Shown here in pieces: positions 9,113 through 54,841 of a stretch of 64,000 nucleotides of DNA. The notes under the pieces are model-generated. The model was given only the letters and a program-made list of their open reading frames with translations. It searched no databases and was not told the origin of the DNA. The DNA comes from an uncultured bacterium (lineage in GTDB: Bacteria; Patescibacteriota; Patescibacteriia; UBA9570; XYC2-FULL-38-9): NCBI GenBank assembly GCA_937996685.1, contig CALKUP010000001.1:181571-245570 (forward strand), read 5' to 3'. The translations under genes and the position numbers were made by a program. The stretch's first letter is position 1. Each line of letters opens with the position of its first letter.

Positions 9113-10195
9113 ATGAAAAAACGTATTGCATCAATTCCTGCTACACTTTTTTTACAAGACGGTCATCGTTTTACCGGACAGGGCTTCGGCTCCCAAAAAA
9201 ATACAGATGGCGAAGTCGTTTTCGCAACCGGCATGGTCGGATATCCTGAATCGTTTACTGACCCCTCCTTTGAGGGTCAAATTTTTGTTGCAACCTTTCC
9301 GTTAATGGGAAATTACGGTGTTCCTGAACATCCGTTTGAATCAGACGCGGTACATATTCGTGCTGTTGTTTGTCAGCAATATACTGAAGACTATTCACAT
9401 CCGCATGCAAAGCAGTCTTTAAGTGATTGGCTTGCAGACAACGATATTCCTGGTATTTCCGGCATTGATACACGGGCACTCACTCAGCATTTGCGCGAAA
9501 CAGGAAACCAAGTTGGTGTGATTGTGTTTGGAAACAATCCAAAAAAACCAGACTTTAAGAAGATTGTTGATCCGAATACGTTGAATTTGGTTGATGTGGT
9601 TTCTCCAAAAGAGGTGCAAGAATACAATATGCAAAACGCAGAAACCAAAATCCTATTGGTTGATTGCGGAATGAAAAATAATATTTTGCAAGAATTTTTG
9701 AAGCGTGACGTTGGCGTGAAACGTGTGCCGTGGAATTATGATTACCGGGCAGAGCTGAAAGATTTTGATGGATTGTTTGTGAGTAACGGTCCTGGAGATC
9801 CAGCGACACTCACTGAAACAGTTGGGTATTTGCGGGATGCAATGAAAACAGGATTGCCAATTTTCGGAATTTGTCTCGGCAGTCAGTTAATGGGTCTCGC
9901 GTCAGGAGCAAAAACATATAAATTAAAATACGGTCATCGCAGCCAAAATCAACCATGTATCGATACAACAACTGGTCGATGTTATCTCACAACTCAAAAT
10001 CATGGATTTGCAGTTGATGAAAAAACCTTGAAAAAAGATTGGAATGTCTGGTTTTATAATGCGAATGATGGCAGTGTGGAAGGTATTTACCACAAAACAA
10101 AACCGTTTATTTCTGTGCAATTTCATCCAGAAAGCACACCGGGTCCAGAAGACACAACATTTTTGTTTGATGAATTTTTGAAACGTATTCGATAA
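9113..10195 (+). CDS. carA: carbamoyl-phosphate synthase small (glutaminase) subunit
   Basis: CPSase small-chain N-domain plus GATase1 domain (GICLGSQL catalytic Cys, HGF...FHPE). The start was moved to the ATG 10 nt after a TATACT box; ORF-track start is 9074. Confidence 0.85.
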   Translation: MKKRIASIPATLFLQDGHRFTGQGFGSQKNTDGEVVFATGMVGYPESFTDPSFEGQIFVATFPLMGNYGVPEHPFESDAVHIRAVVCQQYTEDYSHPHAKQSLSDWLADNDIPGISGIDTRALTQHLRETGNQVGVIVFGNNPKKPDFKKIVDPNTLNLVDVVSPKEVQEYNMQNAETKILLVDCGMKNNILQEFLKRDVGVKRVPWNYDYRAELKDFDGLFVSNGPGDPATLTETVGYLRDAMKTGLPIFGICLGSQLMGLASGAKTYKLKYGHRSQNQPCIDTTTGRCYLTTQNHGFAVDEKTLKKDWNVWFYNANDGSVEGIYHKTKPFISVQFHPESTPGPEDTTFLFDEFLKRIR

Positions 10196-10201
10196 TCGCC
10201 T

Positions 10202-13200
10202 ATGACCATCCCAAAAAAATTTCAAGGACAACGCACAATGAAAAAGGGGCAAAAAGCCTTGATCCTCGGTTCTGGGGGGTTAAAAATTGGACAAGCCGGC
10301 GAGTTTGATTATTCTGGCTCACAATGTATTAAGGCATTGAAAGAAGAGGGAATTGCGACAGTACTCGTCAATCCGAATATCGCGACAGTGCAAACGAATG
10401 ATGACATGGCAGACCGTGTCTATTTTTTGCCACTGACTGTCGACGTTGTCACTGAGGTGATTGAAAAAGAAAAACCAGATGTATTGTTGCTGTCTTTTGG
10501 TGGGCAAACAGCGTTGAATTTAGGACTTGCCTTAGAGGATGCGGGCGTTTTGAAAAAACATAAAGTGAAAATTCTGGGCACACCAACGTCAGCGATTCGA
10601 ATGACGGAAGATCGTGATTTGTTTGCGCAAGAGCTGCGAAAAATCGGTGTTGATGTCGCGGAAAGTTATGCTGTCACGAACATTGAAGATGGAAAAAAAG
10701 CCGCAAAAAAATTAGGGTATCCGGTGATGATTCGAGCGGCATTTGCACTTGGCGGGAAAGGATCGGGTCGTGTGAATTCAGAGCCGGAGCTCATTACAAT
10801 GTTGCAAGAAGGTTTTGCAAATGTGCCGCAAATTTTGGTTGAAGAATATTTGAAAGGTTGGAAAGAAATTGAATACGAAGTTGTGCGAGATGCGGCGGAC
10901 AATTGCGTGACAGTGTGTAACATGGAAAATTTTGACGCAATGGGCGTCCACACTGGCGAGAGTATTGTGATCGCACCATCGCAAACATTGTCGAACCGCG
11001 AATATCAAATGTTGCGCACGGTCGCGCAAAAAGTGGTGCGTCATTTAGGTGTCGTTGGTGAATGTAACATTCAATATGCTCTCAATGCAGTAACTGGTGA
11101 ATATCGCGTGATTGAAGTGAACGCCCGTTTGTCTCGCTCTTCTGCACTTGCCAGTAAAGCAACAGGCTATCCGCTCGCGTGGGTTGCGGCAAAAATCGGT
11201 CTTGGCTATACATTGCCAGAAATCAAAAACGCCATGACTGGCGTGACATCCGCAGCGTTTGAACCAGCGCTTGATTACGTGGTGATTAAAATGCCACGCT
11301 GGGATTTGCAAAAATTTAAAGCCAGTAGTCGTCGGATTGGAACAGAAATGAAATCCGTCGGGGAAGTGATGGCAATTGGCCGAACCTTTGAAGAAGCACT
11401 GCAAAAAGCGATTCGCAGTATTAGTATTGGCGCAGACGGCCTCACAAGTCATCCACATGAGATTGATCGTCCATTTGATGAAATTGAATTTCCAACTGAT
11501 CGACGGCTGTATGCGATTGCAGACGCGCTGCTCGCAGGCACAGATGTTGCGAAAATCAACAAGTTGTCAGATATCGATCCGTGGTTTTTGAATGGTTTGA
11601 AACGGATTGTTGATGTGCACAAACAGCTCAAGAGCGCAAAAGTGCTGACGCCTGAATTACTCAAAACAGCCAAGCAGCACGGTTTTTCAGATAAACAGAT
11701 CGGTGGATTTTTCAAACAATCTGCAGATGACATTCGAGCGCTTCGAAAAAAGAAAGGCATTGTGCCAGTTGTGAAGCGGATTGATACACTCGCTGGTGAG
11801 TTCCCGGCGCAAAGTAACTATTTGTACATGACCTATCATGGCACAGAGAATGATGTTGTTGCAGGTTCAAAAGATGCGGTCATGGTTCTTGGTGGGGGAA
11901 GTTATCGCATCGGTTCATCAGTCGAGTTTGATTGGTGTTCTGTTGAAGCGATTAAAGCGATCCAAAGCAAAAAACGCCAAGCGATTATGGTCAACTGTAA
12001 TCCAGAGACAGTATCAACGGATTATGATATGTGTGACCGATTGTATTTTGAGGAACTGACACTTGAGCGCGTGCTTGATATTCATGATGTTGAAAAACCA
12101 GCTGGTGTGATTGTTTCAATGGGTGGGCAAATTCCAAACAACCTTGCGATGCCATTGATGGAACGCAAAGTGAAAATTTTGGGAACAGATCCGCACAACA
12201 TTGATCGAGCGGAAGATCGCAAAAAATTCTCACAATTACTTGATCGATTAAATGTCGTGCAACCGGAATGGAAAGAACTTGCCGCACTGTCTGACGCAAA
12301 AGCCTTCGCAAAACGGGTTGGGTATCCGGTCTTGATTCGTCCGTCATATGTATTGTCTGGTGCTGCAATGAACATTGCGCATAACGAAGATGCGCTCACG
12401 CAATTTTTGAAAGAAGCGGCTGATGTCTCAAAAGAGCATCCAGTCGTGATTACAAAATTCATGGAAGATGCGCGTGAAATCGAAATTGATGGTGTTGCGC
12501 AAAATGGTGAATTGGTGATTTACGCGCTGACAGAACACGTTGAAAATGCTGGTGTACATTCTGGTGATGCGACTATTGCAACTCCGCCACAAAAATCATA
12601 TCTCGAAACTGTCCGTCGAATGAAACATGTGACGCGAGAAATTATCGCGCAATTAGAAATCACCGGTCCATTCAATATTCAATTTCTTGCAAAACGCAAT
12701 GAAATTTCGGTGATTGAGTTGAATTTGCGCGCTAGTCGCAGTATGCCATTTGTGAGTAAAGCGACGAAGTATCCGATGATTCAAATGGCGACTCGAGCCA
12801 TGCTCGGAGATGACATCCATGGCAATTACAATACACTCGATGTGGATTATGTTGTTGTGAAAGCACCACAGTTTTCGTATTCTCGTATTAAAGGTGCAGA
12901 TCCAGTGCTGTATGTGGAAATGGGTTCAACTGGTGAGGTTGCAACATTCGGTCGGTATTATCGTGAGGCAGTGCTCAAGTCATTGCTCGCGGCAGATTTC
13001 CGGATTCCAAAAAAGAATGTCTTGCTGTCGATTGGTGGCGATAAAGCCAAACAAGAGCTCGCGCCGTATATTAAAAAGCTTCACAAAATGGGCTTGCATC
13101 TCTATGCGACAAAACATACCGCGCAATTTATTCGCTATGATTTAGGGTTGCCAGTCACTGAAGTTGCGAAAATGTCTGAGCGCGCAACAGATAATACATT

Positions 13201-13450: not shown

Positions 13451-14368
13451 ATGAATACACGCAGTCTTATTTCAATCACAGATTTGGACCGCTCTGGCAT
13501 TGAAGCGATTTTGAACGACGCTGCGCTGTTCGCTGAAAAGGGTATTCCGTTTGAATTTTCAGACCGCGCAATGATTGTGGCGAGTCTCTTTTTCGAAGCG
13601 TCCACTCGCACTCGGCTTTCATTTGAAACAGCGGCGAATCGTTTAGGTGCGCGGGTTGTTGGTTTTGATAGCCCTGAAAATACATCATTTTCCCAAAAAG
13701 GAGAAAGTCTTGAAGATACTATTCGGATGATTGATGCGTATGCTGATCTGATTGTGATCCGTCACCCAGAGACAAGCGCTCTGCAAATCGCGGCTGATAT
13801 TGCAACGCATCCAGTGATCAATGCTGGGAATGGAGCAGGCGAGCATCCAACACAGACATTGATTGATTTGTATACAATCAAACAATTATTTGGAAAGATT
13901 GATGGTTTAACTGTTGCGATCGTTGGTGATTTACAGTTTGGTCGTGTCCCGCACTCGCTTGCGCAAGCGTTGACTGTGTTTGATGATGTGAAACAAATTT
14001 GGGTTGCGCCGTCACAGTTGCCAATGCCGGAACATGTGCGAACTGCAGTTGAAGCAACGGGCGCGCATATTGAAATGACAACAGACATTCAACATGCACT
14101 CAACACTGCTGATGTGGTCTATATGACACGCGTCCAAAAAGAGCGGTTTGAAGATAGTGCTGAATATGAGGCGTTGAAAGATGCCTATATTTTGACACCA
14201 GAATTATTGGCAACCGCAAAACCGACAATGAAAATTTTGCATGCACTGCCGCGGCTTTATGAATTACCGACAGCCGTTGACGCGACGCCACATGCGGCGT
14301 ATTTCGAGCAAGCGGCGAATGCAGTTGTTGTCCGAGCGGCGTTGATGCGCTCTATCCTTAATGCGTAA
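13451..14368 (+). CDS. pyrB: aspartate carbamoyltransferase catalytic subunit
   Basis: STRTR carbamoyl-phosphate binding motif, HPTQ, 305 aa; no pyrI follows. Confidence 0.9.
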   Translation: MNTRSLISITDLDRSGIEAILNDAALFAEKGIPFEFSDRAMIVASLFFEASTRTRLSFETAANRLGARVVGFDSPENTSFSQKGESLEDTIRMIDAYADLIVIRHPETSALQIAADIATHPVINAGNGAGEHPTQTLIDLYTIKQLFGKIDGLTVAIVGDLQFGRVPHSLAQALTVFDDVKQIWVAPSQLPMPEHVRTAVEATGAHIEMTTDIQHALNTADVVYMTRVQKERFEDSAEYEALKDAYILTPELLATAKPTMKILHALPRLYELPTAVDATPHAAYFEQAANAVVVRAALMRSILNA

Positions 14369-15503
14369 TACTATGATGACTATTCCTGGAGTGATTGATG
14401 TGCACGTTCATTTTCGTGTACCTGGCGGGGAACACAAAGAAGATTGGAGTCACGGAACGCAAGCGGCATATGCGGGCGGAGTGGTGTATGTGTGCGACAT
14501 GCCGAACACAACACCGGCGATTACGACAGCGGCTGGTGTGCGAGATAAGGCGATGGAAATTGATCGCACCGCACCACATGCAATTGCGCATGGTTTATAT
14601 ATTGGAGCAACAGAAGATAATTTGGAAGAAATTCAAGCGGCTGATCGTGATGGTTTGATTTGTGGTGTGAAGGTCTATTTTGGAACATCGACGGGGCATC
14701 TGACAATGAATAGTCTGCCGGCGCTGCGTGCTCTGATGGAGGCGCGTCTTGGTGTGCCGATTGTGATTCACGCAGAAGATGATGCAGTGATCGCAGCTGC
14801 TCGAGCGGCGTATGAAGCAGAGCATGGAGCAATTACTGATATTGCAGCGCACAGTGATATCCGCTCACGCGATGCGGCGGTCAGTGCTCTGGAAACGATT
14901 CTTGCCTTGGTGAAAGAAACAGCCGCGACCAATGTGCATATTACCCATATTTCAACAGCGCAGGAGGTCGAGTTGATTCGCGCTGCAAAGCAGGCGGGTC
15001 TATCAGTGACATGTGATGTCACGCCACATCATTTGACGTTTACTGTTGCTGATTATGCGCAACACGGCACACGGATTCGATGTAACCCACCAATTCGTGA
15101 ACAAGCAGACGTTGATGCACTGTGGGAAGGATTGCGTGATGGAACAATTGATATTGTCGCATCCGATCACGCGCCGCACACACTCGAAGAAAAAGCCGCA
15201 ACCGAGTATGACGCGATTCCATCTGGTGTTCCTGGTGTGCAAACCTTGCTTCCTGTGTTAGTTGATGGAGTATTGAGTGACAAATTATCGTGGGAGAAAT
15301 TGGTTGCAGTGACAAGCACGAACCCAAGTCAACGTTTTCAGATTCCGGTGCGCGGAGAAGTGGTGATTGATACAGAGGCTGTAACGCAGATTCAAGACAG
15401 CGACCAACAATCACTGTGTGGTTGGACGCCGCTGTCTGGCATGACGCTGCGTGGTGCGATTATTTCAACATCGATTGATGGTGCGTTGTATTATCAGGTC
15501 TAG
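14361..15503 (+). CDS. pyrC: dihydroorotase
   Basis: DVHVHFRVPG metal-binding motif, amidohydrolase fold; overlaps the pyrB stop by 8 nt. Confidence 0.85.
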   Translation: MRNTMMTIPGVIDVHVHFRVPGGEHKEDWSHGTQAAYAGGVVYVCDMPNTTPAITTAAGVRDKAMEIDRTAPHAIAHGLYIGATEDNLEEIQAADRDGLICGVKVYFGTSTGHLTMNSLPALRALMEARLGVPIVIHAEDDAVIAAARAAYEAEHGAITDIAAHSDIRSRDAAVSALETILALVKETAATNVHITHISTAQEVELIRAAKQAGLSVTCDVTPHHLTFTVADYAQHGTRIRCNPPIREQADVDALWEGLRDGTIDIVASDHAPHTLEEKAATEYDAIPSGVPGVQTLLPVLVDGVLSDKLSWEKLVAVTSTNPSQRFQIPVRGEVVIDTEAVTQIQDSDQQSLCGWTPLSGMTLRGAIISTSIDGALYYQV

Positions 15504-15554
15504 CGTTGATTTACTGCTGAAAAAGCGGTAGTATTTGTAATAATAACATCGTGT

Positions 15555-17497: not shown

Positions 17498-18142
17498 ATG
17501 ACAACACAAGAACGTATCGCAGAAATTTTACTCAACGTCGGCGCTGTAACATTAAATGTTGCCGAGCCATTTACCTATAGCTCTGGAATGCGGAGTCCAA
17601 TTTATTGTGATAACCGTTTGTTGATTTCACACCCACAAGAGCGGCAAGAGGTGATTCAAGCATTTTTGGAAGTATTAGAAAAAGAAGGCGTTGATGCAGA
17701 TGTAATTGCTGGAACAGCAACTGCTGGAATTCCACACGCAGCGTGGATTGCGCAAGCGCTTGATAAGCCAATGATTTATATTCGGGATAAAGCCAAGGGG
17801 CATGGAAAAGGAAATCAAATTGAAGGCTTGGTCAGTGAAGGGGCGAGTGCGGTGATTATTGAGGATTTGATTAGTACTGGTGGGAGTAGTATTCGAGCAG
17901 CGATTGCAGCGCGTGAAGCTGGTTTTATTGTGAGCGATATCGTGGCAATTTTTACGTATGAATTTGAAGCAGGATTGCGTGCGTTCGCAGATGAGCATGT
18001 GCGCGTTCACACGTTGTCGAATTTTTCAACCTTGATTCATGTAGCAAAAGCCAAAGGCGCGCTCACAGACGAAGAGGTCGAAAAAGCGCTGGAATGGAAC
18101 GCGGATCCAGCTGGTTGGGGGAAAAAGATGGGATTGAAATAA
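17498..18142 (+). CDS. pyrE: orotate phosphoribosyltransferase
   Basis: PRTase PRPP-binding loop VIIEDLISTGGS; 214 aa. Confidence 0.85.
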   Translation: MTTQERIAEILLNVGAVTLNVAEPFTYSSGMRSPIYCDNRLLISHPQERQEVIQAFLEVLEKEGVDADVIAGTATAGIPHAAWIAQALDKPMIYIRDKAKGHGKGNQIEGLVSEGASAVIIEDLISTGGSSIRAAIAAREAGFIVSDIVAIFTYEFEAGLRAFADEHVRVHTLSNFSTLIHVAKAKGALTDEEVEKALEWNADPAGWGKKMGLK

Positions 18143-25151: not shown

Positions 25152-26696
25152 ATGAAACAGACTCAAGCTACAAAAATCACAAAAGGACTCCGCCGCATTC
25201 CAGCGGTGATGGCAACGCAACATCCGGATAACGCAAATGCACCATATTGGGAAGTGGACGGAGATGGGTTTATTAGCGCACAAGAAGAAGTGCGTGAAGC
25301 GTTTTCTGCCTATAGTGATCTCGGCGTTGATGAGTATATGTGGGATTGGGAAGGAAAATATGTTGATGAAGCGGTGGTTGAGCGACTGTTTTCTGAATAC
25401 ACGGAATTTTTTCAACAGCATGTGTTGGGGCGTGATCGATTTTTGACATTCCGTATTCCAAACATTTGGGAAGAAAAAGGATATTCGCTGGCGCGCGCAT
25501 TTATGGGAATGCTGACCGCCGCGGACATGGCCCATGATTTGAAGATGCCGGCATATCCGTTATTTGAAGTGATTTTGCCGATGACAAAAAATCCAGAGCA
25601 GTTAATGTATTTGCATGATACGTTTCAAAAGCTCGCGAAAGTGAAGCACGAGCTTTTTGCTGGAGACACAGCTGATTTTGACCATATTGAAATGATCCCG
25701 CTAACAGAAAGTGTTCCGGAAATGTTGAATATCCGCGGGTTTTTAGAATCATATGAGCAGTCATATAAAAAAGCGTTTAAAAAACAATTGCGTTATTTGC
25801 GGCCATTTATTGCACGCTCAGATCCAGCGCTTGTTTCAGGAATGCTCGCTGCGGTGATTGGCAATAAAGTGGCGCTTTCTGAAATGGCGCGTTGGTCAAA
25901 AAAATCTGGCGTGCCAATCTATCCAATTATTGGAGCGGGGAGCTTGCCGTTTCGAGGAGGGCTGTCGCCGGAGTATATCGATCAATTTATTAATGAATAC
26001 CAAGGGGTTCGAACTGTGACAATCCAGTCCGCGTTTCGATATGACTATCCATTAAAAACAGTGCGTCGCGCGTTGAAAAAATTACAACAAGAATTACCAA
26101 GCAGTACTCCTCGACTGATTGATGAAGCATCGCTCGCGGTGTTGGGAGTCATTGCCGAGCGGAGTGCGAAATTGTATCGCAAGACAATTGCGGGTATCGC
26201 AGATGATGTGTTGTCACTTTCCAAACATGTTCCGCGAAGACGTGAGCGCAAACTCCATATTGGATTATTAAAATACGGCCGGTCTGTTGCTGGAAAAGAA
26301 TTTCCACGAGCAATTACATTTACAGCGACGCTCTATAGCTTGGGAGTTCCGCCGGAATTGATTGCCGCGGGCCGCACAATTGCAATGTTGTCTGATGCAG
26401 AAAAAGCGGTGTTTGAAAAAACATATATCCATTTTAAAGATGACATGATTCGAGCGGGTCGTTATTTGAATACAGAAAATGTGTTACGGTTGTCCGCGGA
26501 AAATGCTGTGTGGGAACAGATACATGCGGATATTGTTGCGCTTGAAGCCTATCTTGGCGTGACTTTAGGGCCAAAAACAACGACAGAATTACTGCATCGG
26601 AACGCGACATCGGATGTGTATTTACTGATGCAGAAAAATCTACCCATTGCTGACGTATTGCTGCGCGCTGCCACTTTGCGACAATCTCTCGGGTAA
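25152..26696 (+). CDS. phosphoenolpyruvate carboxylase, archaeal-type (PpcA family)
   Basis: About 514 aa, N-terminal IPAVMATQHPDNA signature of archaeal-type PEPC. Confidence 0.75.
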   Translation: MKQTQATKITKGLRRIPAVMATQHPDNANAPYWEVDGDGFISAQEEVREAFSAYSDLGVDEYMWDWEGKYVDEAVVERLFSEYTEFFQQHVLGRDRFLTFRIPNIWEEKGYSLARAFMGMLTAADMAHDLKMPAYPLFEVILPMTKNPEQLMYLHDTFQKLAKVKHELFAGDTADFDHIEMIPLTESVPEMLNIRGFLESYEQSYKKAFKKQLRYLRPFIARSDPALVSGMLAAVIGNKVALSEMARWSKKSGVPIYPIIGAGSLPFRGGLSPEYIDQFINEYQGVRTVTIQSAFRYDYPLKTVRRALKKLQQELPSSTPRLIDEASLAVLGVIAERSAKLYRKTIAGIADDVLSLSKHVPRRRERKLHIGLLKYGRSVAGKEFPRAITFTATLYSLGVPPELIAAGRTIAMLSDAEKAVFEKTYIHFKDDMIRAGRYLNTENVLRLSAENAVWEQIHADIVALEAYLGVTLGPKTTTELLHRNATSDVYLLMQKNLPIADVLLRAATLRQSLG

Positions 26697-37961: not shown

Positions 37962-38828
37962 ATGACTGACATCAAGACCGTGACTCCTGCCACCACCATC
38001 TTCGTTCTCGGGGGTGAGGACGGGGAGATGCGTGCGATTCGCGCTCTCCTCCAGCGGTTTGGATACCGCTGGGTGCAGCCCAACCAGGCGTGGGGTGACC
38101 ACGCCTTCACGCCCGCGCAGTGCGGGCTCAAGGTCGAGTCAAAGGAGTTGTCCCGGCAAGGGCACTCCTACCGGGCCGATCAGATCGACGGCCTTCACCA
38201 GGCTGTCTTCGTTGAGTGCCGCGCTAGCGAGAGCGGCTGGCCGACGGACGGCTGGAGGTCTGTGGTCATCGACCATCACGGCTCCCGCTCGGGAGAGGTG
38301 GCCAGCATCCAGCAGGTCATTGATCTGCTCGGGTTGTGGCCCAGGCTCTCCTCGGCCACCCAGCGCTGGGCGGAGCTGATCGCGGTCAACGACTCGGGGT
38401 GGATCCCTGGGTTGCAGGCCTGGGGTGCCACGCTCGAGGAGATCGAGCGCGTCCGCGGGTTCGACCGAGCCGCGCAGGGCATCACGCCCGTCCACGAGAC
38501 AGAGGTCGAGCGGGCGCTCACCGCGCCAGAGGAGTTGATCGGCGCCATCCGCATTGTCCGGATGAGTCACTCGAAGACCTCTCCGCTCGGGGACAGACTG
38601 GCCCTCACCGCAATGCGCGAGGGACGGGAGGCTCCCTCCTACCTCGCGCTCTCCGGCGATGGGGAGGTGAACTTCTCTGGCGACGGCGCTCTCGCCGCCG
38701 CGCTCGCCACTCGGTTCCAGGGCTGGAGCGGCGGCTCCGGCCTCGGCAAAGCCGGGGAGAAGGCCTTCTGGGGAGGGTATCCCTCCCACGAGGAGGTGCT
38801 TGCGTTCATTCGCGAGCACACCGCTTGA
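37962..38828 (+). CDS. hypothetical protein on a high-GC (about 66%) island, with a GGAG ribosome-binding site
   Basis: 289 aa from MTDIKTV; contains a VVIDHHG motif (weakly DHH-like); strong codon GC3 bias. Confidence 0.5.
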   Translation: MTDIKTVTPATTIFVLGGEDGEMRAIRALLQRFGYRWVQPNQAWGDHAFTPAQCGLKVESKELSRQGHSYRADQIDGLHQAVFVECRASESGWPTDGWRSVVIDHHGSRSGEVASIQQVIDLLGLWPRLSSATQRWAELIAVNDSGWIPGLQAWGATLEEIERVRGFDRAAQGITPVHETEVERALTAPEELIGAIRIVRMSHSKTSPLGDRLALTAMREGREAPSYLALSGDGEVNFSGDGALAAALATRFQGWSGGSGLGKAGEKAFWGGYPSHEEVLAFIREHTA

Positions 38829-38928
38829 TTCCCGGCCCCGAGACGGGCTGAAGTAACGCGTCACCTGACGCAACAACGGTCCGTCCCACCTGAGCACACT
38901 TTCTGTAAAAAGATTGTTGTGCTCGGAC

Positions 38929-38970
38929 CGTTTCTTGAGCAGATAACAGCTGTTGTGTCTTCAAGAAACG
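38929..38970. repeat. perfect 10-bp inverted repeat CGTTTCTTGA / TCAAGAAACG with a 22-nt spacer that contains an ACAGCTGT palindrome
   Basis: Read directly from the sequence; about 100 nt downstream of the high-GC gene. Confidence 0.7.
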
Positions 38971-39079
38971 TGAATCATGTCTAGCGTTTAGTAGACAAAA
39001 AGTCTTGTGGTGTAGAGATATGGCAGGATATAATTCTTCCATGACTAATAAAGCGGCATACATATAATCGATACAATAT

Positions 39080-39433
39080 ATGACTGAAAAAAGTACGAAA
39101 CAACAACCGATGATGAGTCCAGAAGAAAGACGATTATTACGAGAGCAGCTAAAGCGTGATAATGATTTTCATGAAGAACAAATTCTTGGATATGAAACAC
39201 AACTTGGAGCAATGCGCCGAACATCCCCGGCTCCAACGGAGACATCTACGCTTATAAGCGATCCTGAAAATAAGCAGCATCATATCTATATTCACGGACT
39301 TGATGCAGCAGGTCCGGCTGGTCCGGTTGTTGAACAAACAGCTGAAGAACTGACAGATGAACAGCGTGCATCCATTGCAGAAAGTGAAGCAAGGAGTGCT
39401 GCAAGAAAGCGGTTCTACGGTTCAGGTCGGTAA
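39080..39433 (+). CDS. hypothetical protein
   Basis: 117-aa ORF with a charged N-terminus and an Ala/Pro-rich C-terminus. Confidence 0.4.
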   Translation: MTEKSTKQQPMMSPEERRLLREQLKRDNDFHEEQILGYETQLGAMRRTSPAPTETSTLISDPENKQHHIYIHGLDAAGPAGPVVEQTAEELTDEQRASIAESEARSAARKRFYGSGR

Positions 39434-39484
39434 TGTTTTTATATATGAAATATAATGAAATTTTCAAAAATATAGTACACGCAT

Positions 39485-41995
39485 ATGGGAGAAAGAAATG
39501 ATCAAAATTTTCGTACGCCGAGTCGTAATGAAATTGAAGCTGAGCCAAATGTTGGTGAATGTATTTTGAATATTGCATTAACACACTCTGGTGATATTCG
39601 AACTTCTGCGGTGACGCCAATTCCAGGGAATACAAAACCGTATGTCATCGCGGCGCGTCAGCATGAAAAGTTAAAGACGTATTTACGCTCTGTGAAGGAC
39701 GTAGAGGCTCAGCAATTTCGGTGTCGTGTTGTTCCTGAACATCCAAGCATTGCTCGATTGCTTCAGCGTGCATGTCTAGTGGAAATAGTTGAAACAATGC
39801 CGCAGCGTGAGTGGAGTATTCAGATGATCAATGCAAAGCCAGCGCTCGTAGCAATTCGAGGAGGAGTTGTCGAAAAAATCATACATGCTGCGGGTTATAA
39901 GAGTAACCCTGGTTTAAGTGTGCAAGATACAAAGCAATTTACAGAATGGGGCTTTGGTGATATCGCGCAGCGGTTTAATGGTTTATGTGAAGAGCATTTT
40001 GAAGAAAAAGCATTGACGTTTGAGGCGCAAGTAGCTGAATGGCGAGAGCTTGTTGTTCATGCAATAGAAAGATTGCCGAAAGGCAGTGGTAGTATTCAAG
40101 ATATTACTATCCCAATTCCAGGTGGAAGAGTTGAAGTGTATTTAAGTCCTGAGGGAGTATATGATAAAGGTGATGTTTTATATGTTGGAGAATATGGAAG
40201 CATTCAAAGTTCAAAATATTTTTCATTCAACCCTCCTATTCCATTGAATGAGGTGCCTGTTGATGTGGCTTCTCCACGAGCCTTCATTGATCAAATGACG
40301 CGTGCTGGATTTGATGCGCCGACAGTGAGTGATATTGATAATGCGAAATATGGAACAATAACAATTCAATGGAAAGGTCCCGATGAACGTAAGAGTATAA
40401 ATAAAACCTTTTCTTGTGAGGTTTTACAAAACGAAGGTTTGTTGCGTACAAGTGATCTATCAGTTCATTCGAATGGCGCTGGTCAACCACCGGTGATCGG
40501 TTTTTCATTGACGATTGACTTTGGATCAGTAGCGCAAATGCGGCCAGAAACTACATGGATTGCAGTTGGGACAATGCCACGTATTTGTTTGCCTGAGCAA
40601 GCACGCATATTTCAGTTACCCTCTATTCAAAAGGGATATATTTATAATCATAAATTTCCAGAACAAGCGGCGATTGCGCGTAAGCGTATTGAAGCGGCTA
40701 TTGAAGATTCGGCATTCATTGAGCGATTTACGCAATCTTTGGATCGACATGCAAATCCTGTTATTGCACAATATGTCTTGATTAAAAAAATTATTGAAGC
40801 GCAAGATCTACGCCAGATAGAACAAAGAACTGTTCGAGAGATGGGATCGGCATCAAGGGACGGGTATCATAGACCACAGGAGTCTTTGGTTAATAAGAAA
40901 TTCATCGGGAAATCTAACATCGTATTTGATGAGAAATATCCTGATCCGTGGGAAGGTTCAAATGCGCATTTACGAAGCATGACGCAGAAAAATCTAGAAA
41001 CACAAAAAGCTGATATCCATTCTTTTTTTGAGACACTGCAGTCAAAAGGGCTTCTTTTTGCTGCACAAGGATCTGGTACTTCAGTTGATGACAAGCTTAT
41101 GATCGAGTATCAGCCCCCCGTCGCTGTTTCTATGGAGAATAGTGAGTACTTACGAAGCGAGTCAGTGATTGGTTCAATTATCGATGTTTTGCGTAAAAGA
41201 GAGCAGAGGATCACAACCGCTCTTCGACTACTTGAAGAAAGCGCTCCTGCGTCTGCATTTGAAGTACTGCAAGAAGGCGGGCCATTAGACAATGATCCGC
41301 TTATGATGTCGACTGAACCGGCTTTGCCTCCTGTAAAAAAAGACCGACCTTCTGTTAATGTCAGTGCGTTAGAAGCGGTGTTTGGGAAGGTGTCACCTTC
41401 TCCTCAAAAACCACAGCCAACAACGCCCACACGACCGACTGAAAAGCGCCCGGAACCTGCGAAAGCGCACATTGAAAAAGTAGAGCCAGCTACAGAAGAA
41501 CAACGCAAGCTGATTCAGAGAAGTGCGCAATATGTCCGAAGTCTCCTTGGAATTGGCCGGTCATTTGGAGCGCCAAGTGCTGACGCAGCGCGACCATCAG
41601 CGCGTGACAGAGCGCTGAGTAATATTGAACGGGTGGCGATCGCAGCAAAAACAGCGTTGAAAGAAATTGACGATTTGATCAAAGCACCGAATGCGCGATA
41701 TGACAGCTTGCAAGGAAAGGTGGCTGCAGTCAAACTAAAAGTAGAAAATGTATTACTTGATAATGCACCAATTCTTGATAAGGGTCTCACGCCTGTCGCA
41801 TTGTCTGCATATGAGGCTATTTGGACAAGTGCTCCTGATGCTATTGATCAAAATGATGACGCTACATATTATATTACTGAAGGCCTGACAACAAAAGAGG
41901 TGATACTCAAGGCGTTGCGAGATGGGGTATTGGACGCTGCAAAACACGGTCTTTCAATTGAGCAGTTGTTGTCGCAAATTATCAGTCAACTCTAA
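39485..41995 (+). CDS. large hypothetical protein (836 aa) with an internal Pro/Thr-rich linker
   Basis: Long uninterrupted ORF with native-like composition and a PQPTTPTRPTEKRPEP low-complexity linker; no recognisable catalytic motifs. Confidence 0.55.
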   Translation: MGERNDQNFRTPSRNEIEAEPNVGECILNIALTHSGDIRTSAVTPIPGNTKPYVIAARQHEKLKTYLRSVKDVEAQQFRCRVVPEHPSIARLLQRACLVEIVETMPQREWSIQMINAKPALVAIRGGVVEKIIHAAGYKSNPGLSVQDTKQFTEWGFGDIAQRFNGLCEEHFEEKALTFEAQVAEWRELVVHAIERLPKGSGSIQDITIPIPGGRVEVYLSPEGVYDKGDVLYVGEYGSIQSSKYFSFNPPIPLNEVPVDVASPRAFIDQMTRAGFDAPTVSDIDNAKYGTITIQWKGPDERKSINKTFSCEVLQNEGLLRTSDLSVHSNGAGQPPVIGFSLTIDFGSVAQMRPETTWIAVGTMPRICLPEQARIFQLPSIQKGYIYNHKFPEQAAIARKRIEAAIEDSAFIERFTQSLDRHANPVIAQYVLIKKIIEAQDLRQIEQRTVREMGSASRDGYHRPQESLVNKKFIGKSNIVFDEKYPDPWEGSNAHLRSMTQKNLETQKADIHSFFETLQSKGLLFAAQGSGTSVDDKLMIEYQPPVAVSMENSEYLRSESVIGSIIDVLRKREQRITTALRLLEESAPASAFEVLQEGGPLDNDPLMMSTEPALPPVKKDRPSVNVSALEAVFGKVSPSPQKPQPTTPTRPTEKRPEPAKAHIEKVEPATEEQRKLIQRSAQYVRSLLGIGRSFGAPSADAARPSARDRALSNIERVAIAAKTALKEIDDLIKAPNARYDSLQGKVAAVKLKVENVLLDNAPILDKGLTPVALSAYEAIWTSAPDAIDQNDDATYYITEGLTTKEVILKALRDGVLDAAKHGLSIEQLLSQIISQL

Positions 41996-47683: not shown

Positions 47684-49240
47684 ATGTACACACGGGCAAT
47701 CAAGCCTGACAATCACGTTCTCCTGGGGGAGATCATGACGTCCTTTGATAGCTCTGGTTCTACTGCAACTGTTGCCCTGGCTAAAAATGAAGGCATTGAC
47801 TGGGGTGAATTTAAGCCCCGAAGCCTCGACGAGGTCGCGAAGTTGCTCGGCATTCCGCTGAGTCGCGTGCTCCTCTGTCACCAGTTCGTGAACCATGATC
47901 CGGCGTGGATCATTCGTGAAGCGGACCTTGATGCGTACTTGGTGCGCATGGGCGCGGTTTGGACGCATGGTTTCTGTAGGGGGCAGGTGCTGACAACGCC
48001 GATGCTCCCGGGTGTCGTGCAAGATCATCTGCGCCCCCTTGGCTTCGCTTGTCGGCTCATCGAGAGCGATCGACCTGACTCGAGTCTGCGTCACGGCGAT
48101 GCTTTCCGGTTTGCCGGACACGACAGTGCTCTTGTTCAAGGCTGGGCAGATGACAATCGTGTCCTGCTGGCCAGCTTGGTCAGCCGAGACATGTCTGCAA
48201 GTGGTTTGTCCCGCATTACGCGCGGGGTGAGTCTCATGGTCAACTCCAAGCCGGAAATGCGCCGCGGCGCTGAAAAGTTTGGATTTCGGATGGCACCTGG
48301 TGGTGTCGTTCGGACGCTCGCTGACTGCGAGCGCGTCTGGAGTACTTGCTCCGGTGGCCGCGACGGTGAGGCAGACGGCTTCACCATGTGGTTGAAGGCT
48401 GACGGGAGTGGCTCGGACTTCGTCATTCGAGTGCGTAACCGTTTAGAGCTTCACGTTGCCTGCTTGGAGATGGTCAAGCGCGTGCTCGAGGGTCACGCAA
48501 CCTTGCCGTCTCAATGCAGAAGAGAAGTGAACGGAACTGTAATTCGCGGTTGGCGGGACGTACTTGAACGTGAAGGCCCCTTGCCAGAGGGCTTGGGATT
48601 TCCGATCCCGTTTGTCCTTGAAACGGATGCGACCGTGCTCGGCGAATTAGTCGCTAGCATCTGCTGGCAGGCGTTGATCTGTCTAGACGGTACGACCCGT
48701 GTTGTTGGGCACTCGGATCAGATCTTGTCGCCCGACGGATCGGAATGGTGGGGTTCCAAGCGCTCCTCGCTTGAACTTCCACCAGACTTCCGTGATCAGG
48801 CCGAACGGCTCGTGAAGTGGTATCGCCACTGCGGCTACACCGGCTTCATCGGGCCGGACGCGATCATCGTTCGTAATCGTGAGACCCAGGAACTCCAGAC
48901 GATCTGGATCGACCCGAACGGTCGGGCAGCCATGAGCACGACGGCTTTCATGGTTAGCAACGCGCTGTTTGACGGCGAGGGTGGGTGGATCAACACCAAC
49001 CTCACTTTGAGTGAGCCGCTGCAGAACTACACCCAGCTCCGCCAGCTCATCGGCGGAACGCTCCTCGACCCCGGCGGGGAAGACGGCGTTCAGGGTGTGG
49101 TTCTCGCGACCCGCACTGAGCCGGGCGAGCCCAGTCCGGTTCTCAAGCTGTGGTTCGGAAGTCGAGACGGCAACGGACTCGCGGCCTGCGAGGCGATGCT
49201 CGCCAAGCTCCAAGTCCGTGGAGTCAAGATCGGCAGCTAA
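47684..49240 (+). CDS. hypothetical protein with an ATP-grasp-like C-terminal half (high-GC island)
   Basis: 518 aa. The C-terminal GFIGPDAIIVRNRETQELQTIWIDPNGRAAMSTTAFMV parallels the ATP-grasp Mg/ATP-binding region (compare carB FNIQF...VIELNLRASRS in this window). The N-terminal approximately 200 aa are unassigned. RBS-like AGAGGAA upstream. Confidence 0.45.
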   Translation: MYTRAIKPDNHVLLGEIMTSFDSSGSTATVALAKNEGIDWGEFKPRSLDEVAKLLGIPLSRVLLCHQFVNHDPAWIIREADLDAYLVRMGAVWTHGFCRGQVLTTPMLPGVVQDHLRPLGFACRLIESDRPDSSLRHGDAFRFAGHDSALVQGWADDNRVLLASLVSRDMSASGLSRITRGVSLMVNSKPEMRRGAEKFGFRMAPGGVVRTLADCERVWSTCSGGRDGEADGFTMWLKADGSGSDFVIRVRNRLELHVACLEMVKRVLEGHATLPSQCRREVNGTVIRGWRDVLEREGPLPEGLGFPIPFVLETDATVLGELVASICWQALICLDGTTRVVGHSDQILSPDGSEWWGSKRSSLELPPDFRDQAERLVKWYRHCGYTGFIGPDAIIVRNRETQELQTIWIDPNGRAAMSTTAFMVSNALFDGEGGWINTNLTLSEPLQNYTQLRQLIGGTLLDPGGEDGVQGVVLATRTEPGEPSPVLKLWFGSRDGNGLAACEAMLAKLQVRGVKIGS

Positions 49241-50927: not shown

Positions 50928-51208
50928 AATTCACTCCATTATCACTAGTTGAAATTGCGTAATAATAGGAGTATATTATCTATACCGTGAGGAATTGACA
51001 TATCCAGCTTCACAAATTGTTTCCTGTATTGATCGTATTTCGAATAGAGCCTTGTTGCTCTCTTCGTTCAGATCACATGCGGTATATACGCGTTTTAATC
51101 AGCACCTGTCCGGGATTTCTCAGATTTGCGTTGTGCGAAACGATGAGCGCTTGCGCAAAGCCCAATTACTTTCAGGAAGCCTGGATATGCAGTTTCGTAG
51201 CGGTGCGT

Positions 51209-51283
51209 GCGGGTATCGTATAGTGGCTATTACGCGGCCTTCCCAAGGCTGAAAGAGGAGTTCGATTCTCCTTACCCGCTCCA
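51209..51283 (+). tRNA. tRNA-Gly (anticodon CCC) with genomically encoded CCA
   Basis: Manual fold: acceptor GCGGGTA/TACCCGC, anticodon stem CGGCC/GGCTG, loop TTCCCAA, T-arm AGGAG-TTCGATT-CTCCT, discriminator U, 3' CCA. Confidence 0.8.
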
Positions 51284-51423
51284 ACAAAGTAGATCACCAA
51301 AGTGCTTTGTATTTATGGGTATTTTGGTCCTAGGAAAATGTACTGATAACAGGAAGGTGCGAACTGATAAGAGAAATATGATATAGTGCTGAGGATATAT
51401 AACAATACACGCATCATCATTCT

Positions 51424-52398
51424 ATGAAAATCATTGAACCGCGTCCCAATATTATAACTGGAGTGAACGAGCAAGTCCCAAAAGAACCTCTATTTGACCC
51501 AAATGTGGTAGAGGCTCGAATGGATGAAACATCTGCCAGGAATTTTCTTTCAAATGAAGGCCCTCTACGCGGAATGGAGCCAGATGCTGCGCGCATTATT
51601 TTGCAATTTTCTGATGATTTTCCTGATGAAATGATTACATGGGCGCAACGGGTTTGTTCCAGTCATGAACGCCGCCGAGCAGGCAGTGTATTGCCTTCAG
51701 ATTATTCAATAAAAGCATGGCCATATGTTGGTGTAGACGGACAAACGTATACAAGGGAAGAATTAGATCGTTTCAGAAAAGAAGCAACGCTTGACCAAGT
51801 TCGTGCATTATTAGGTGATGAGCAATACAAGGAGCGGCGAGAGAAAAGCTACACCATTAGAGATGGTAAACGTTATTTTGAACCAGTAACTAATCCCATT
51901 CGCTCTGTAGAAAATTCAGTTGATGAATATATTAAACGACGTTTTGATGATTATGCATGGGCTGGCTCGCATGCGTTAGAGCTTGCGCGAAGACTCACTC
52001 CCGAAGGGTTTCATCTTGTTGGCGTCGAGTGCGGTAGGGGTATGCAAAAAATTGTGTACGAAATACGACCGAATGAATCTGGGCCGTTTCGTTCAGCACT
52101 TGATTTTATGCCAGAAAATAATAAGTCGGGTGGACGCCAATACACAAGCGATGAGAAAATTGCAGAATACGTAAGAAGCAAGGGGATTGTTGCAAACATC
52201 GTGCTCTATGATGATGGGGCAAATCGCGGGATATATGTTGAAGGCACTGCACCCGGAGCAGATATTTCTGCTATCGAAGCTATTGCTAGGAAGTTTGTTG
52301 GAGATTTTGGAGAAGAATACAATGGAGGTAACTTAGAAACGAACAAAAAGATTATTGCGCCAAATGGCGAGGCAATTGAATTTAATGAACCTATTTAG
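51424..52398 (+). CDS. hypothetical protein
   Basis: 324 aa; no recognisable motifs; native-like composition. Confidence 0.5.
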   Translation: MKIIEPRPNIITGVNEQVPKEPLFDPNVVEARMDETSARNFLSNEGPLRGMEPDAARIILQFSDDFPDEMITWAQRVCSSHERRRAGSVLPSDYSIKAWPYVGVDGQTYTREELDRFRKEATLDQVRALLGDEQYKERREKSYTIRDGKRYFEPVTNPIRSVENSVDEYIKRRFDDYAWAGSHALELARRLTPEGFHLVGVECGRGMQKIVYEIRPNESGPFRSALDFMPENNKSGGRQYTSDEKIAEYVRSKGIVANIVLYDDGANRGIYVEGTAPGADISAIEAIARKFVGDFGEEYNGGNLETNKKIIAPNGEAIEFNEPI

Positions 52399-52406
52399 AA
52401 TACATC

Positions 52407-52468
52407 TCAGCTCTAACGTGGCAGGCGGCCTCTGCTCCAATAAAGTCGCCTCACACGGCGATTTTTTT
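52407..52468 (+). repeat. copy 1 of an approximately 60-nt structured intergenic element (conserved CTAACGTGGCAGGCGG head, hairpin, and a terminator-like tail with a T-run)
   Basis: About 85% identical to the copy at 53571-53633; both are followed by a TATACT box and then the next gene's ATG. Confidence 0.6.
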
Positions 52469-52508
52469 ATTTTTACCTCACAGCAGGAGTCTGATATACT
52501 CTTTTTAT

Positions 52509-53564
52509 ATGAAAGAATCACAGAATCTTACTTCACCATCGGGTATAGCAAAGGCAGAAAAAAAGGCTATTGTTCGACCATTTCCTCTACTACAGGACTT
52601 GTTCAAATTTGCACAAAAAGAAGGCATTCATGATGCTGGTTTTCGTTATCAGGGCGAGAGGGCTGACGTGGTTACCGCTGAGCTTCCAGAAACATTCCAA
52701 CCGCTCACAGAAGATTTTCCAGCAAAATATTTTGTGGTTGCGTATGAAGATCGACGTGGTGAGTATTATGCAGAAGGTACAAGACACCAGCTTGTTCGTC
52801 TTTCTACAGTGGAACGCCCTTCATCCACAGATGCGAGAACACGAGAAATGGATTTGATTCTTCCCGATGATAAACGCGCAGATCGTATCCGGGTGACTGT
52901 GAGAGAAGCAGTGAAAGAAAAAAGTTTTGAAGAGATCAATCAAAAAAATGATGATGGATTAGATCAGCCACACGGCAGCGCGCGGTATACATATGAAATT
53001 GATGCGAGCGGAAAGCGTCACCCAAAGAAGTTTGAATTTGATCGGCTCGATGAAGGGCTCTTTGATCTTGGTGGGGATAATTATAAACCAGTGCGATGGG
53101 TACGCGATCTCTTGATTGAAAAAGGTGAAGATGGTGAGGATCAGATTCAGTACAACGATTTATACATTCTCAATAGAAGCAATAACCCAGGAGATGAAAG
53201 CAGAGCGAGTGTGCAAACATCTTTAATTGGTACATTTGAAAGCCCTCGAAGTGTTGTTGTTGAGATTGGTTTTGGGCCAATGGAAACAGCTCGGGTATTA
53301 TTTCACGATGAAGAAAAAAATATCACATTGTTTTTGCATCAATCAGTGAGAACAGAGGATTCTATTGCAATACTCAAAGACGACCCAGTATACACTGAGC
53401 TTTTAAATGCTTCACCAAAACCAGAAGCATTTATTGAAAAAATCCGCGCAAGATGTCAGATGTTAAAAGATGATTGGGCAAACCCACAGTCTGTCTATGA
53501 TGATTCCCCGGTCATTGCAGAACGACCATTGGTAATTGCTCAGGATGAATCAGCTGTAGAGTAG
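52509..53564 (+). CDS. hypothetical protein
   Basis: 351 aa; acidic; no recognisable motifs; TATACT box 8 nt upstream of the ATG. Confidence 0.5.
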   Translation: MKESQNLTSPSGIAKAEKKAIVRPFPLLQDLFKFAQKEGIHDAGFRYQGERADVVTAELPETFQPLTEDFPAKYFVVAYEDRRGEYYAEGTRHQLVRLSTVERPSSTDARTREMDLILPDDKRADRIRVTVREAVKEKSFEEINQKNDDGLDQPHGSARYTYEIDASGKRHPKKFEFDRLDEGLFDLGGDNYKPVRWVRDLLIEKGEDGEDQIQYNDLYILNRSNNPGDESRASVQTSLIGTFESPRSVVVEIGFGPMETARVLFHDEEKNITLFLHQSVRTEDSIAILKDDPVYTELLNASPKPEAFIEKIRARCQMLKDDWANPQSVYDDSPVIAERPLVIAQDESAVE

Positions 53565-53570
53565 GTATAT

Positions 53571-53633
53571 TCAGTTCTAACGTGGCAGGCGGTTCCTGCT
53601 TCAAGAAAAAGTTGCCTCATAAGGGCGTTTTTT
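53571..53633 (+). repeat. copy 2 of the approximately 60-nt structured intergenic element
   Basis: See copy 1. The differences from copy 1 (G-C to G-T and C-G to T-G) preserve base pairing. Confidence 0.6.
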
Positions 53634-53704
53634 GTAACAAGAAAGATGAGAGTCTTCTAATGCCCAAATGTACAATAGGAGCCTTTTTTTGTTATACTTT
53701 TTAT

Positions 53705-54454
53705 ATGAAAATCCTGACAGTCAATATTTGGAATGGGGGCAGAATCTGGGATTCGTTGATTCCATTTATTCAAAAACTACAACCAGACATCATCTTCATG
53801 CAAGAAGTATTTGACTCTCCCCGTGAAGATGTCGAACAACGCTTCCGCTCAACGCAAGGGATCAGAGATACGCTGAAATATCCCTATGATCATTTTACTC
53901 CAGCGTTTATTAACGCAGTAGAGGTCGGTGATGTAGTAGAAGGCTTGATGATTCTTTCAAAATTTCCGATTGTTGAAAATGATACGTTCTATCTATATGG
54001 TGAGTATGGAAGAAGAGATTTGCAAACACCAGACGGATTTAGGTCGACTCCGCGTATTTTACAGCATGCTGTTGTTGAGTATGAAAACAAGAAATTACAT
54101 CTATATAACATTCACGGGATATGGGACGAGCATGGCGACGACACACCATTGCGCTTAGAAATGGCAAAAGATATCTTGTCATATATCGATGATGCTGAAT
54201 ATGTAATTTTAGGTGGGGACTTTAATGTACAACCAGACACAAAAACAATTCGCATGATAGAAAGCACATTTACTAATGTGCTACGAGGAGAAACGGAAAC
54301 GACGTTTAATATGAAACGAAAAGAAAACCTCGCTTTTGGAAAAGCGATCGCCGACATGTTTTTTGTAAGTAATAATGTGACTGTAACGGAAAAAACAGTG
54401 CACCATGTAGACGTATCAGATCATTTGCCGTTATCGATTGAGGTTGAGCTATGA
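53705..54454 (+). CDS. endonuclease/exonuclease/phosphatase (EEP) family protein
   Basis: MKILTVNIWNG...IIFMQEV N-terminal EEP motif and C-terminal DHLPL; start moved to the ATG after the TATACT box. Confidence 0.7.
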   Translation: MKILTVNIWNGGRIWDSLIPFIQKLQPDIIFMQEVFDSPREDVEQRFRSTQGIRDTLKYPYDHFTPAFINAVEVGDVVEGLMILSKFPIVENDTFYLYGEYGRRDLQTPDGFRSTPRILQHAVVEYENKKLHLYNIHGIWDEHGDDTPLRLEMAKDILSYIDDAEYVILGGDFNVQPDTKTIRMIESTFTNVLRGETETTFNMKRKENLAFGKAIADMFFVSNNVTVTEKTVHHVDVSDHLPLSIEVEL

Positions 54455-54490
54455 AAGAACTAATTAGTGGAATTGCGATTGTGCTGACAT

Positions 54491-54841
54491 TTGCGAGATA
54501 CGATCAAAGGTAAAACACGACCGCATATATACACGTGGTTTGTTTGGGGCTTGGTGCCATTTATTATATTTGCGCTACAAGTGAGCGATAATGCTGGTGC
54601 GGGGTCGTATGTAACACTTGCTGCTGGAGTAGTGTGTATGATTATTTTCAGACTTGGCCTGCGTCAAGGTAAAAAAGACATCACGTTCATAGACACCGCT
54701 TTATTTATTTCATCATTTATTGCTCTTGAACGATACACCATTATTACGGCCGCCTTCCCAGTAACCTGGACAATCGCGAATACATTTTTTGTTCTCTTTC
54801 TTGTGCTACGACGAATGCAGTTGAAGTTGATAAAGAAATAA
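54491..54841 (+). CDS. hypothetical small membrane protein
   Basis: 116 aa, 3 predicted TM segments. Confidence 0.35.
   Translation: MRDTIKGKTRPHIYTWFVWGLVPFIIFALQVSDNAGAGSYVTLAAGVVCMIIFRLGLRQGKKDITFIDTALFISSFIALERYTIITAAFPVTWTIANTFFVLFLVLRRMQLKLIKK

Follow-up and report, generated by a model that had tools for sequence, protein, structure and literature searches.

A repeated gene-end element linked to tRNA-Gly in a Patescibacteria-type chromosome: a candidate boundary module rather than a sensor RNA

Why does a short, partly structured element stand on both sides of a single bacterial gene? This question is raised by a 64,000-nucleotide (nt) stretch of contig CALKUP010000001.1 (assembly GCA_937996685.1; the whole stretch is hereafter called the window), in which two copies of an element of about 60 nt with a conserved 5' head bracket a gene for a protein of 351 amino acids (aa). 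A preliminary description of the locus had proposed a selected RNA structure, such as a riboswitch or an attenuator, and had named a conserved terminator as a fall-back option. Our analysis lends no support to a riboswitch or an attenuator, and the fall-back option proved correct: an intrinsic terminator ends both copies. We favour, with modest confidence, the view that the element is a composite gene-end or boundary module of tRNA-Gly-linked single-gene islets and not a sensor RNA.

Anatomy and probable ancestry of the repeat pair

The repeats of about 65 nt at the two sites are genuine and far beyond chance, and on this point the preliminary description was right. Smith-Waterman alignment of the two neighbourhoods returned one significant block, 52407-52469 against 53571-53636, with a score of 59, where shuffled sequences reached at most 32. 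Within the window, the 17-mer TCTAACGTGGCAGGCGG has exactly two occurrences, both on the + strand (52412 and 53576), and none of 100 dinucleotide-preserving shuffles contained two or more matches to it. The copies have now diverged to about 80-85% identity, and the whole intergenic regions around them show a weaker similarity of 78% (MAFFT).

Both copies occupy the same position between genes, as had been described, namely between a stop codon and a TATACT box (TGnTATACT at 52495-52500 and 53693-53698). The elements start 8 nt (copy 1) and 6 nt (copy 2) past the TAG stop codons of their upstream genes (52396-52398 and 53562-53564), and the terminators follow about 45 nt past the stop. The downstream hairpin with its T-run, already recognized as a terminator in the preliminary description, was recovered in both copies by folding and by a terminator scan, as a 9-bp stem (52442-52465) followed by T7 in copy 1 and a stem (53607-53633) followed by T6 in copy 2. 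In its minimum free energy (MFE) fold, each copy forms two independent hairpins, GGCAGG/YCUGCU with a 5-nt loop and the terminator, and leaves the head unpaired. The folding z-scores are unremarkable (-1.8 and -0.9 for copies 1 and 2), and the terminator stems of the two copies are retained only via a register shift.

Read from 5' to 3', the module appears to combine a head of 13-22 nt (TCAGYTCTRACGT...), the last 6-9 nt of tRNA-Gly (CYGCTYCA) and the native intrinsic terminator of tRNA-Gly(UCC). The evidence for its right part comes from a related assembly, GCA_964492735.1, of which one locus (L044) was found through a cluster mate, at at least 90% identity, of the gene to the right of copy 2, a member of the endonuclease/exonuclease/phosphatase (EEP) family. 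Window 53685-54545 and L044 10086-10966, which holds the EEP orthologue, share 91% nucleotide identity. In L044 this gene is directly preceded by a tRNA-Gly(UCC) gene ending in ...TACCCGCTCCA, by the terminator AGAAAAAGTCGCCACACACGGCGATTTTTTG (-15.1 kcal/mol, z = -4.3) and then by TTATACTTTTTATATG (TTATACT). This is an unoccupied site, with tRNA-Gly(UCC), terminator, promoter and EEP gene in series and with neither head nor islet. The right half of copy 1 (52434-52467) aligns with the tRNA 3' end and terminator of this site (L044 10056-10091) at 89% identity over 36 nt (blastn E=5e-5; alignment score 51, shuffle maximum 31), and the right part of copy 2 (53595-53633) aligns with L044 10053-10090 at a score of 36 (shuffle maximum 25). 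A covariance model built from both window copies, R1, matches the same site with 36.9 bits (E=9e-8). By all these comparisons, the right halves of both copies are homologous to the 3' end of tRNA-Gly(UCC) and its terminator.

The head has a different history, since it recurs in L044 away from the EEP locus. Model R1 matches L044 17912-17992 (20.2 bits, E=0.0017), within an element at 17901-17992 that reads GAGTAGGTAgcATATTCAGTTCTGACGT-cattgacga-CCCCGCTCCAACAAA and is followed by a different terminator, AAAAACGCCTTCTTTTGAGGCGTTTT. This third copy agrees with the head at 16 of 17 positions and also carries GAGTAGGTA upstream and CCCCGCTCCA; its hairpin and terminator differ from those of the window copies. 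Its left part (L044 17901-17928) aligns with 53559-53583 of copy 2 at a score of 36 (shuffle maximum 29). It lies directly 3' of an unrelated 260-aa orphan gene, which is itself downstream of a tRNA-Gly(GCC) gene, and this tRNA gene together with about 85 nt of 3' flank is 80% identical to the tRNA-Gly(CCC) gene and flank that lie to the left of copy 1 in the window. The head seems to recur where small inserted gene islets end on their right-hand side. In the search for further homologues that the preliminary description had suggested, R1, run with filters off, found no copy in the window beyond the original two, the next best matches (at most 21 bits) being ordinary terminators, for example at 63.9 kb, and it did match the two L044 sites. 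A head-like sequence with two mismatches, TCAGGTCTAGCGT, stands with a hairpin at window 15494-15540, where gene 14361-15503 ends; it scores 11.1 bits (E about 1) with the covariance model and is probably a chance resemblance.

It is exactly at the 3'-terminal sequence of tRNA-Gly that homology to the head gives way to homology to the tRNA and its terminator. The window copies are, by these homologies, mosaics, whose left part belongs to the head family and whose right part derives from the tRNA-Gly(UCC) 3' end and terminator. All three tRNA-Gly genes (CCC in the window, UCC and GCC in L044) have the 3' end TACCCGCTC in common, and the last bases of the window gene also read ...TACCCGCTCCA. 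The corresponding repeats are short, 6-9 nt, and read GCTCCA in copy 1, GCTTCA in copy 2 and CCCGCTCCA in the L044 element; CCCGCTCCAACAAA is shared at 14 of 14 positions by the L044 element and the window tRNA with its flank. The window tRNA-Gly(CCC) is 82% identical to tRNA-Gly(UCC) of L044 and co-linear with tRNA-Gly(GCC). These co-linear genes differ in their anticodons, CCC at window 51209-51283 and GCC at L044 16891-16963, and the L044 tRNA-Gly(GCC) gene does not encode CCA. Because of the homology to the tRNA-Gly 3' end and terminator, together with the mosaic junction, the conservation of sequence between the copies would be explained by a history at the DNA level.

Three other readings of the element were considered and rejected. 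Local and right-anchored alignments gave no indication that the head is a decayed tRNA-Gly body (p = 0.11-0.8), nor did any tRNA model match; coding potential of the head is contradicted by reading frames that differ between the copies and by non-synonymous substitutions; and a sigma-54 promoter reading of TGGCA...TGC fails on a spacing that is 2 nt too long.

The anatomy, the terminators, the homologies and the mosaic junction are observed; how recombination took place, and in which sequence the steps followed one another, we infer as follows. The ancestor would have had the order tRNA-Gly, terminator, promoter and EEP gene, as is still the case in L044. An islet with the head at its right end may then have recombined at the tRNA-Gly 3' end by att-type recombination, which would have left the head, the tRNA 3' end and the terminator ahead of the EEP gene. 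Later, the insertion of the 351-aa gene would have duplicated the whole terminator-promoter linker around it and so produced copies 1 and 2. Such a later linker duplication would best explain the pair, because both copies share segments that are missing from the L044 EEP locus (the head and ACAnnAGGAGyCT) and because copy 1 has a terminator-type right half. Today, each copy is predicted to act as the ordinary terminator of its upstream gene, the 324-aa gene for copy 1 and the 351-aa gene for copy 2.

Islands that target tRNA or tmRNA genes provide precedents for this arrangement. Tandem islands bounded by direct repeats of the tRNA or tmRNA 3' end, island-borne conserved motifs immediately upstream of the repeat, and integrase-less islands or remnants of the cis-mobilizable element (CIME) type have all been described (PMC3146451, PMC5704250), with the ssrA islands of Dehalococcoides as an example of tRNA/tmRNA targeting (PMC3146451; reviewed in PMC5704250). 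Our locus matches the classical picture because of the tRNA-Gly gene on its left, its orphan and variable cargo and the unoccupied arrangement in the related L044. A tRNA gene, tRNA-Gly(CCC), marks one boundary, a layout with an equivalent in L044, and a short putative copy of the tRNA 3' end marks the distal one, with the conserved motif immediately upstream of it. The islets differ from classical islands in their size of only 1-2 kb and in carrying single genes.

Several observations weigh against this interpretation. Neither an integrase nor a recombinase was found in the islet or in the open reading frames (ORFs) that were scanned from about 27 kb to 64 kb, and no recombinase domain was recognized in the 324-aa and 351-aa proteins, the 260-aa protein of L044 or the neighbouring ORFs. 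The repeat shared with the tRNA is only 6-9 nt long, unlike that of known islands, and reaches 14 nt only between the L044 element and the window tRNA flank. From the right junction one would expect a tRNA of the UCC type on the left, but the gene there, Gly(CCC), belongs to the GCC type, and therefore an extra rearrangement between tRNA-Gly loci must be assumed. The right half of the internal copy, copy 1, is of the terminator type and not an attP-type hybrid; it resembles a later duplication, and therefore a separate duplication step is needed. Furthermore, the head shows no significant similarity to the tRNA body, and scans of public collections for the head gave chance matches only. The exact 17-mer had 15 matches among GTDB species genomes and 12 in IMG/VR, and the pattern TCTAACGTGGCAGG-N4-7-YCTGC had 9 in JGI metagenomes, all of them chance or coding matches with dissimilar flanks; a degenerate head-plus-core pattern had 7 matches in IMG/VR, all due to chance, and in phage and plasmid collections the tRNA-Gly gene alone was matched. 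The 12 IMG/VR contigs (L016-L027) belong to one phage family, in which the 17-mer is part of a conserved coding sequence and is unrelated to the element.

As terminators, both copies resemble ordinary Rho-independent ones, with a G+C-containing stem-loop directly followed by a U-run, 8-11 nt or more past a stop codon, and the terminator of copy 1 differs by one base from that which follows tRNA-Gly(UCC) in L044. They differ from ordinary terminators by the additional conserved 5' head with its tRNA-3'-end fragment and by forming a diverged pair that brackets one gene.

Possible local duplication and mobility of single genes

A simpler history would dispense with site-specific recombination altogether. 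In that case, illegitimate or homologous recombination during insertion of the 351-aa gene would have doubled an ordinary intergenic linker, made up of 3' untranslated region (UTR), terminator and promoter, the head was part of an older 3' UTR, and its likeness to a tRNA 3' end is incidental. The extent of the repeat fits this account, as it takes in ACAnnAGGAGyCT, which L044 lacks, along with the promoter and ATGAAA; no integrase was found in the scanned ORFs; and a 351-aa homologue in another genome is likewise bracketed by twin linkers, of quite different sequence. Two points speak against it: the head stands at a second locus in L044, where both the terminator attached to it and the neighbouring gene are different, and the homology switches exactly at the tRNA-Gly 3'-terminal sequence. 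Neither is easily accounted for unless recombination occurred at that site, and we regard plain duplication as a rather unlikely account of the locus.

The other genome deserves a closer look. At its locus L028, the 351-aa homologue lies between two near-identical terminator-promoter linkers, AAAGCCTCAG...CTGGGGTTTTGT, at 9931-9960 and 11014-11077; in the second, the loop is interrupted by an additional hairpin of 34 nt. Linkers of this type occur nowhere else in the 21-kb locus, and their sequence is unrelated to that of the window linkers. This parallel suggests that insertion of the 351-aa gene duplicates the local linker.

From here, one may speculate further, with considerable doubt, that single ORFs move as integrase-less mini-cassettes in this Patescibacteria-type lineage with leaderless mRNAs. 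Such cassettes may insert precisely between a linker and the next gene or at a tRNA-Gly 3' end, duplicating the whole linker, and would recombine at the head TCAGYTCTRACGT beside the tRNA-3'-end core. A cassette of this kind would be the 351-aa family, whose twin linkers in the window and in L028, two unrelated genomes, differ in sequence.

Readings at the RNA level

Could the element nevertheless work as a cis-regulatory RNA? According to this proposal, AGGCGGY and GUYGCCU would form an antiterminator helix, and the element would be a conditional terminator, attenuator or riboswitch that controls read-through into the next gene. The pairing itself is possible, as had been claimed, since all 7 positions of the helix form standard pairs in copy 1 and in copy 2 alike. 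Mutually exclusive hairpins, the second element of the claim, are plausible for copy 1 only, where the forced alternative helix is almost isoenergetic with the MFE fold (-16.9 and -17.3 kcal/mol) and one segment pairs either upstream or within the terminator, as in known attenuators and riboswitch platforms. In copy 2 the alternative, at -8.6 compared with -16.5 kcal/mol, is 8 kcal/mol worse and has a pair probability of 1e-4. Two of the substitutions between the copies weaken the alternative helix, and another change (G-U to G-C) strengthens the competing hairpin.

The changes that the preliminary description had read as compensatory do not bear this out. They are one-sided C-to-U substitutions (G-C to G-U and C-G to U-G), and the number of double-sided changes in any helix of copies 1 and 2 is zero. 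Over the two window copies and the L044 head copy, RNAalifold gave a consensus of -2.97 kcal/mol and no covariation, and both the AGGCGG arm and the 6-bp hairpin are missing from the third copy. For these reasons, what is conserved across the copies appears to be primary sequence, namely the head and CYGCTYCA, without structure. A scan of Rfam for a described family returned nothing, either at gathering thresholds or at E<=10. The element also lies outside any 5' leader, because each downstream gene has its own promoter, whose -35 and extended -10 boxes come 3' of the terminator. Attenuators and riboswitches differ from the element in having such a leader, an aptamer, covariation and Rfam matches, and the alternative fold is kept neither in copy 2 nor in the L044 copy. 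Lacking covariation, a 5' leader, an Rfam match and a competitive alternative in copy 2, the element can hardly be a selected RNA switch, and we consider a cis-regulatory role very improbable.

A slim chance of the same order attaches to a small RNA derived from the 3' UTR, or a protein-binding 3' UTR, in which the single-stranded head (UCAGYUCURACGU) serves as seed or binding site and the terminator provides the 3' end. Its appeal lies in a head that is kept in sequence and not in structure over three copies, while hairpin and terminator vary, and that stays unpaired in both window copies. Complementary sites in the window are not enriched (22 observed, 23.6 expected), neither an internal promoter nor a processing signal was identified, and the junction at the tRNA end is better explained by the DNA-level account.

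The weakest candidate is an integron-type attC site separating promoterless cassettes, for which the cores R'' (RYYYAAC) and complementary R' (GTTRRRY) should lie 50-140 nt apart: YTCTAAC resembles R'' (the YYYAAC-like motif), and the short structured repeats directly follow same-orientation ORFs of unknown function, but the reading is effectively refuted by the absence of the inverse core (GTTAGAR/GTTRRRY) from 52399-52508 and 53565-53704, and it also conflicts with a first core base of Y instead of R, with cassettes that have their own promoters, and with the lack of an intI-like or integrase domain among those of the window ORFs that were scanned.

Gene starts, neighbouring genes and implications

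The features of the locus are listed in Table 1. In each case, transcription of the next gene is predicted to begin at an extended -10 promoter of its own and to yield a leaderless mRNA, and the EEP promoter and start are the same in L044 (GTTATACTTTTTATATGAAAATCCTG). At the 3' end of the spacer that separates the terminator of copy 2 from the EEP promoter, a second TTTTTTTG is present. Across the window, a -10-like TAnnnT box lies 5-11 nt upstream of 18 of 44 long-ORF starts, compared with 6.6% of random positions, and a Shine-Dalgarno core precedes only 2 of the 44 gene starts; examples of leaderless-looking starts are 25053(-), 27156, 30166, 37517(-), 39485, 52509 and 53705. The lineage appears to do without Shine-Dalgarno sequences. 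That the two promoters resemble each other, as do the ATGAAA starts, is explained in part by this genome-wide leaderless pattern.

Table 1. Positions of the element copies, their parts and the flanking genes in the window
Feature	Position	Strand	Remarks
tRNA-Gly(CCC) gene	51209-51283	+	ARAGORN; Rfam tRNA 54.4 bits; left boundary of the variable segment
Conserved 3' flank of tRNA-Gly	51284-51365	+	window 51206-51365 is 80% identical to L044 16888-17048
324-aa orphan gene (cargo 1)	51424-52398	+	upstream of copy 1
Element copy 1	52407-52469	+	head, small hairpin, tRNA-3'-end-like GCTCCA and intrinsic terminator
Copy 1 head TCAGCTCTAACGTGGCAGGCGG	52407-52428	+	
Copy 1 small hairpin	52420-52425 paired with 52431-52436	+	
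Copy 1 tRNA-3'-end-like GCTCCA	52434-52439	+	
Copy 1 terminator	stem 52442-52450 with 52457-52465, U-run to 52468	+	
Promoter of 351-aa gene (predicted)	52472-52500	+	TTTACC, 17 nt, TG-n-TATACT; ATG 8 nt past -10
351-aa gene (cargo 2)	52509-53564	+	bracketed by copies 1 and 2
Element copy 2 including upstream GAGTAGGTA	53559-53636	+	GAGTAGGTA contains the stop codon
Copy 2 head TCAGTTCTAACGTGGCAGGCGG	53571-53592	+	
Copy 2 hairpin	53584-53589 paired with 53595-53600	+	
Copy 2 GCTTCA	53598-53603	+	
Copy 2 intrinsic terminator	53607-53633	+	
Spacer, copy 2 terminator to EEP promoter	53635-53691	+	about 57 nt; missing at the orthologous L044 locus (alignment)
Promoter of EEP gene (predicted)	53669-53698	+	TGTACA, 18 nt, TG-n-TATACT; ATG 6 nt past -10
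EEP-family gene, conserved right neighbour	53705-54454	+	Pfam PF03372, E=2e-17

The two cargo genes are unrelated to each other, so that paralogy was rejected, and neither protein matched a family in Pfam, NCBIfam, PHROG or PADLOC. For the 324-aa ORF, the sole match among 5.8 billion clustered proteins was the protein itself, and it is also unrelated to the 260-aa protein encoded in the corresponding place in L044. The conserved flank 3' of the window tRNA-Gly gene could represent either the islet's left arm or a native flank. The 351-aa family comprises 21 homologues with at most 53% identity, including one with a Patescibacteria annotation, and no two of the genomes examined had the same genes around it; in L030, for instance, a member lies between NifU and cysteine desulfurase genes. 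None of the loci of five homologues carries the element. An AlphaFold (AF2) model of the 351-aa protein is beta-rich (predicted local distance difference test score, pLDDT, 80; predicted template modelling score, pTM, 0.77) and found no fold match in the PDB, the best having E=0.15.

On its other side, the EEP gene has its stop codon overlapped by a small membrane-protein ORF (window 54451-54841, L044 10852-10992), which is full-length in the window, where a 20-nt deletion distinguishes it from L044, and truncated in L044; homology at the L044 ORF stops at a terminator-like hairpin. With murD, pgm, carB, glyA, ligA, pilM and similar genes, the window as a whole is an unremarkable piece of a bacterial chromosome. 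An archaeal-type phosphoenolpyruvate (PEP) carboxylase (PF14010, E=3e-136) is encoded at 25152-26696, together with carB, glyA and other biosynthetic genes in this Patescibacteria-like genome. Two patches at 47684-49240 and 38001-40000 are richer in G+C (53-54%, about 45% elsewhere), and a 518-aa ORF at 47684-49240 has no family match in four libraries.

What does the pair of elements mean for this lineage? Its candidacy as a regulatory RNA fails, which spares follow-up effort in that direction. The locus instead offers a small and clean example of how tRNA 3' ends and terminators may be reused as gene-end modules when orphan genes insert beside tRNA genes, and this example comes from a poorly sampled lineage. 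If the twin-linker pattern should prove to be a general signature of insertion, it would point to an undescribed way in which single genes spread in reduced genomes without obvious integrases.

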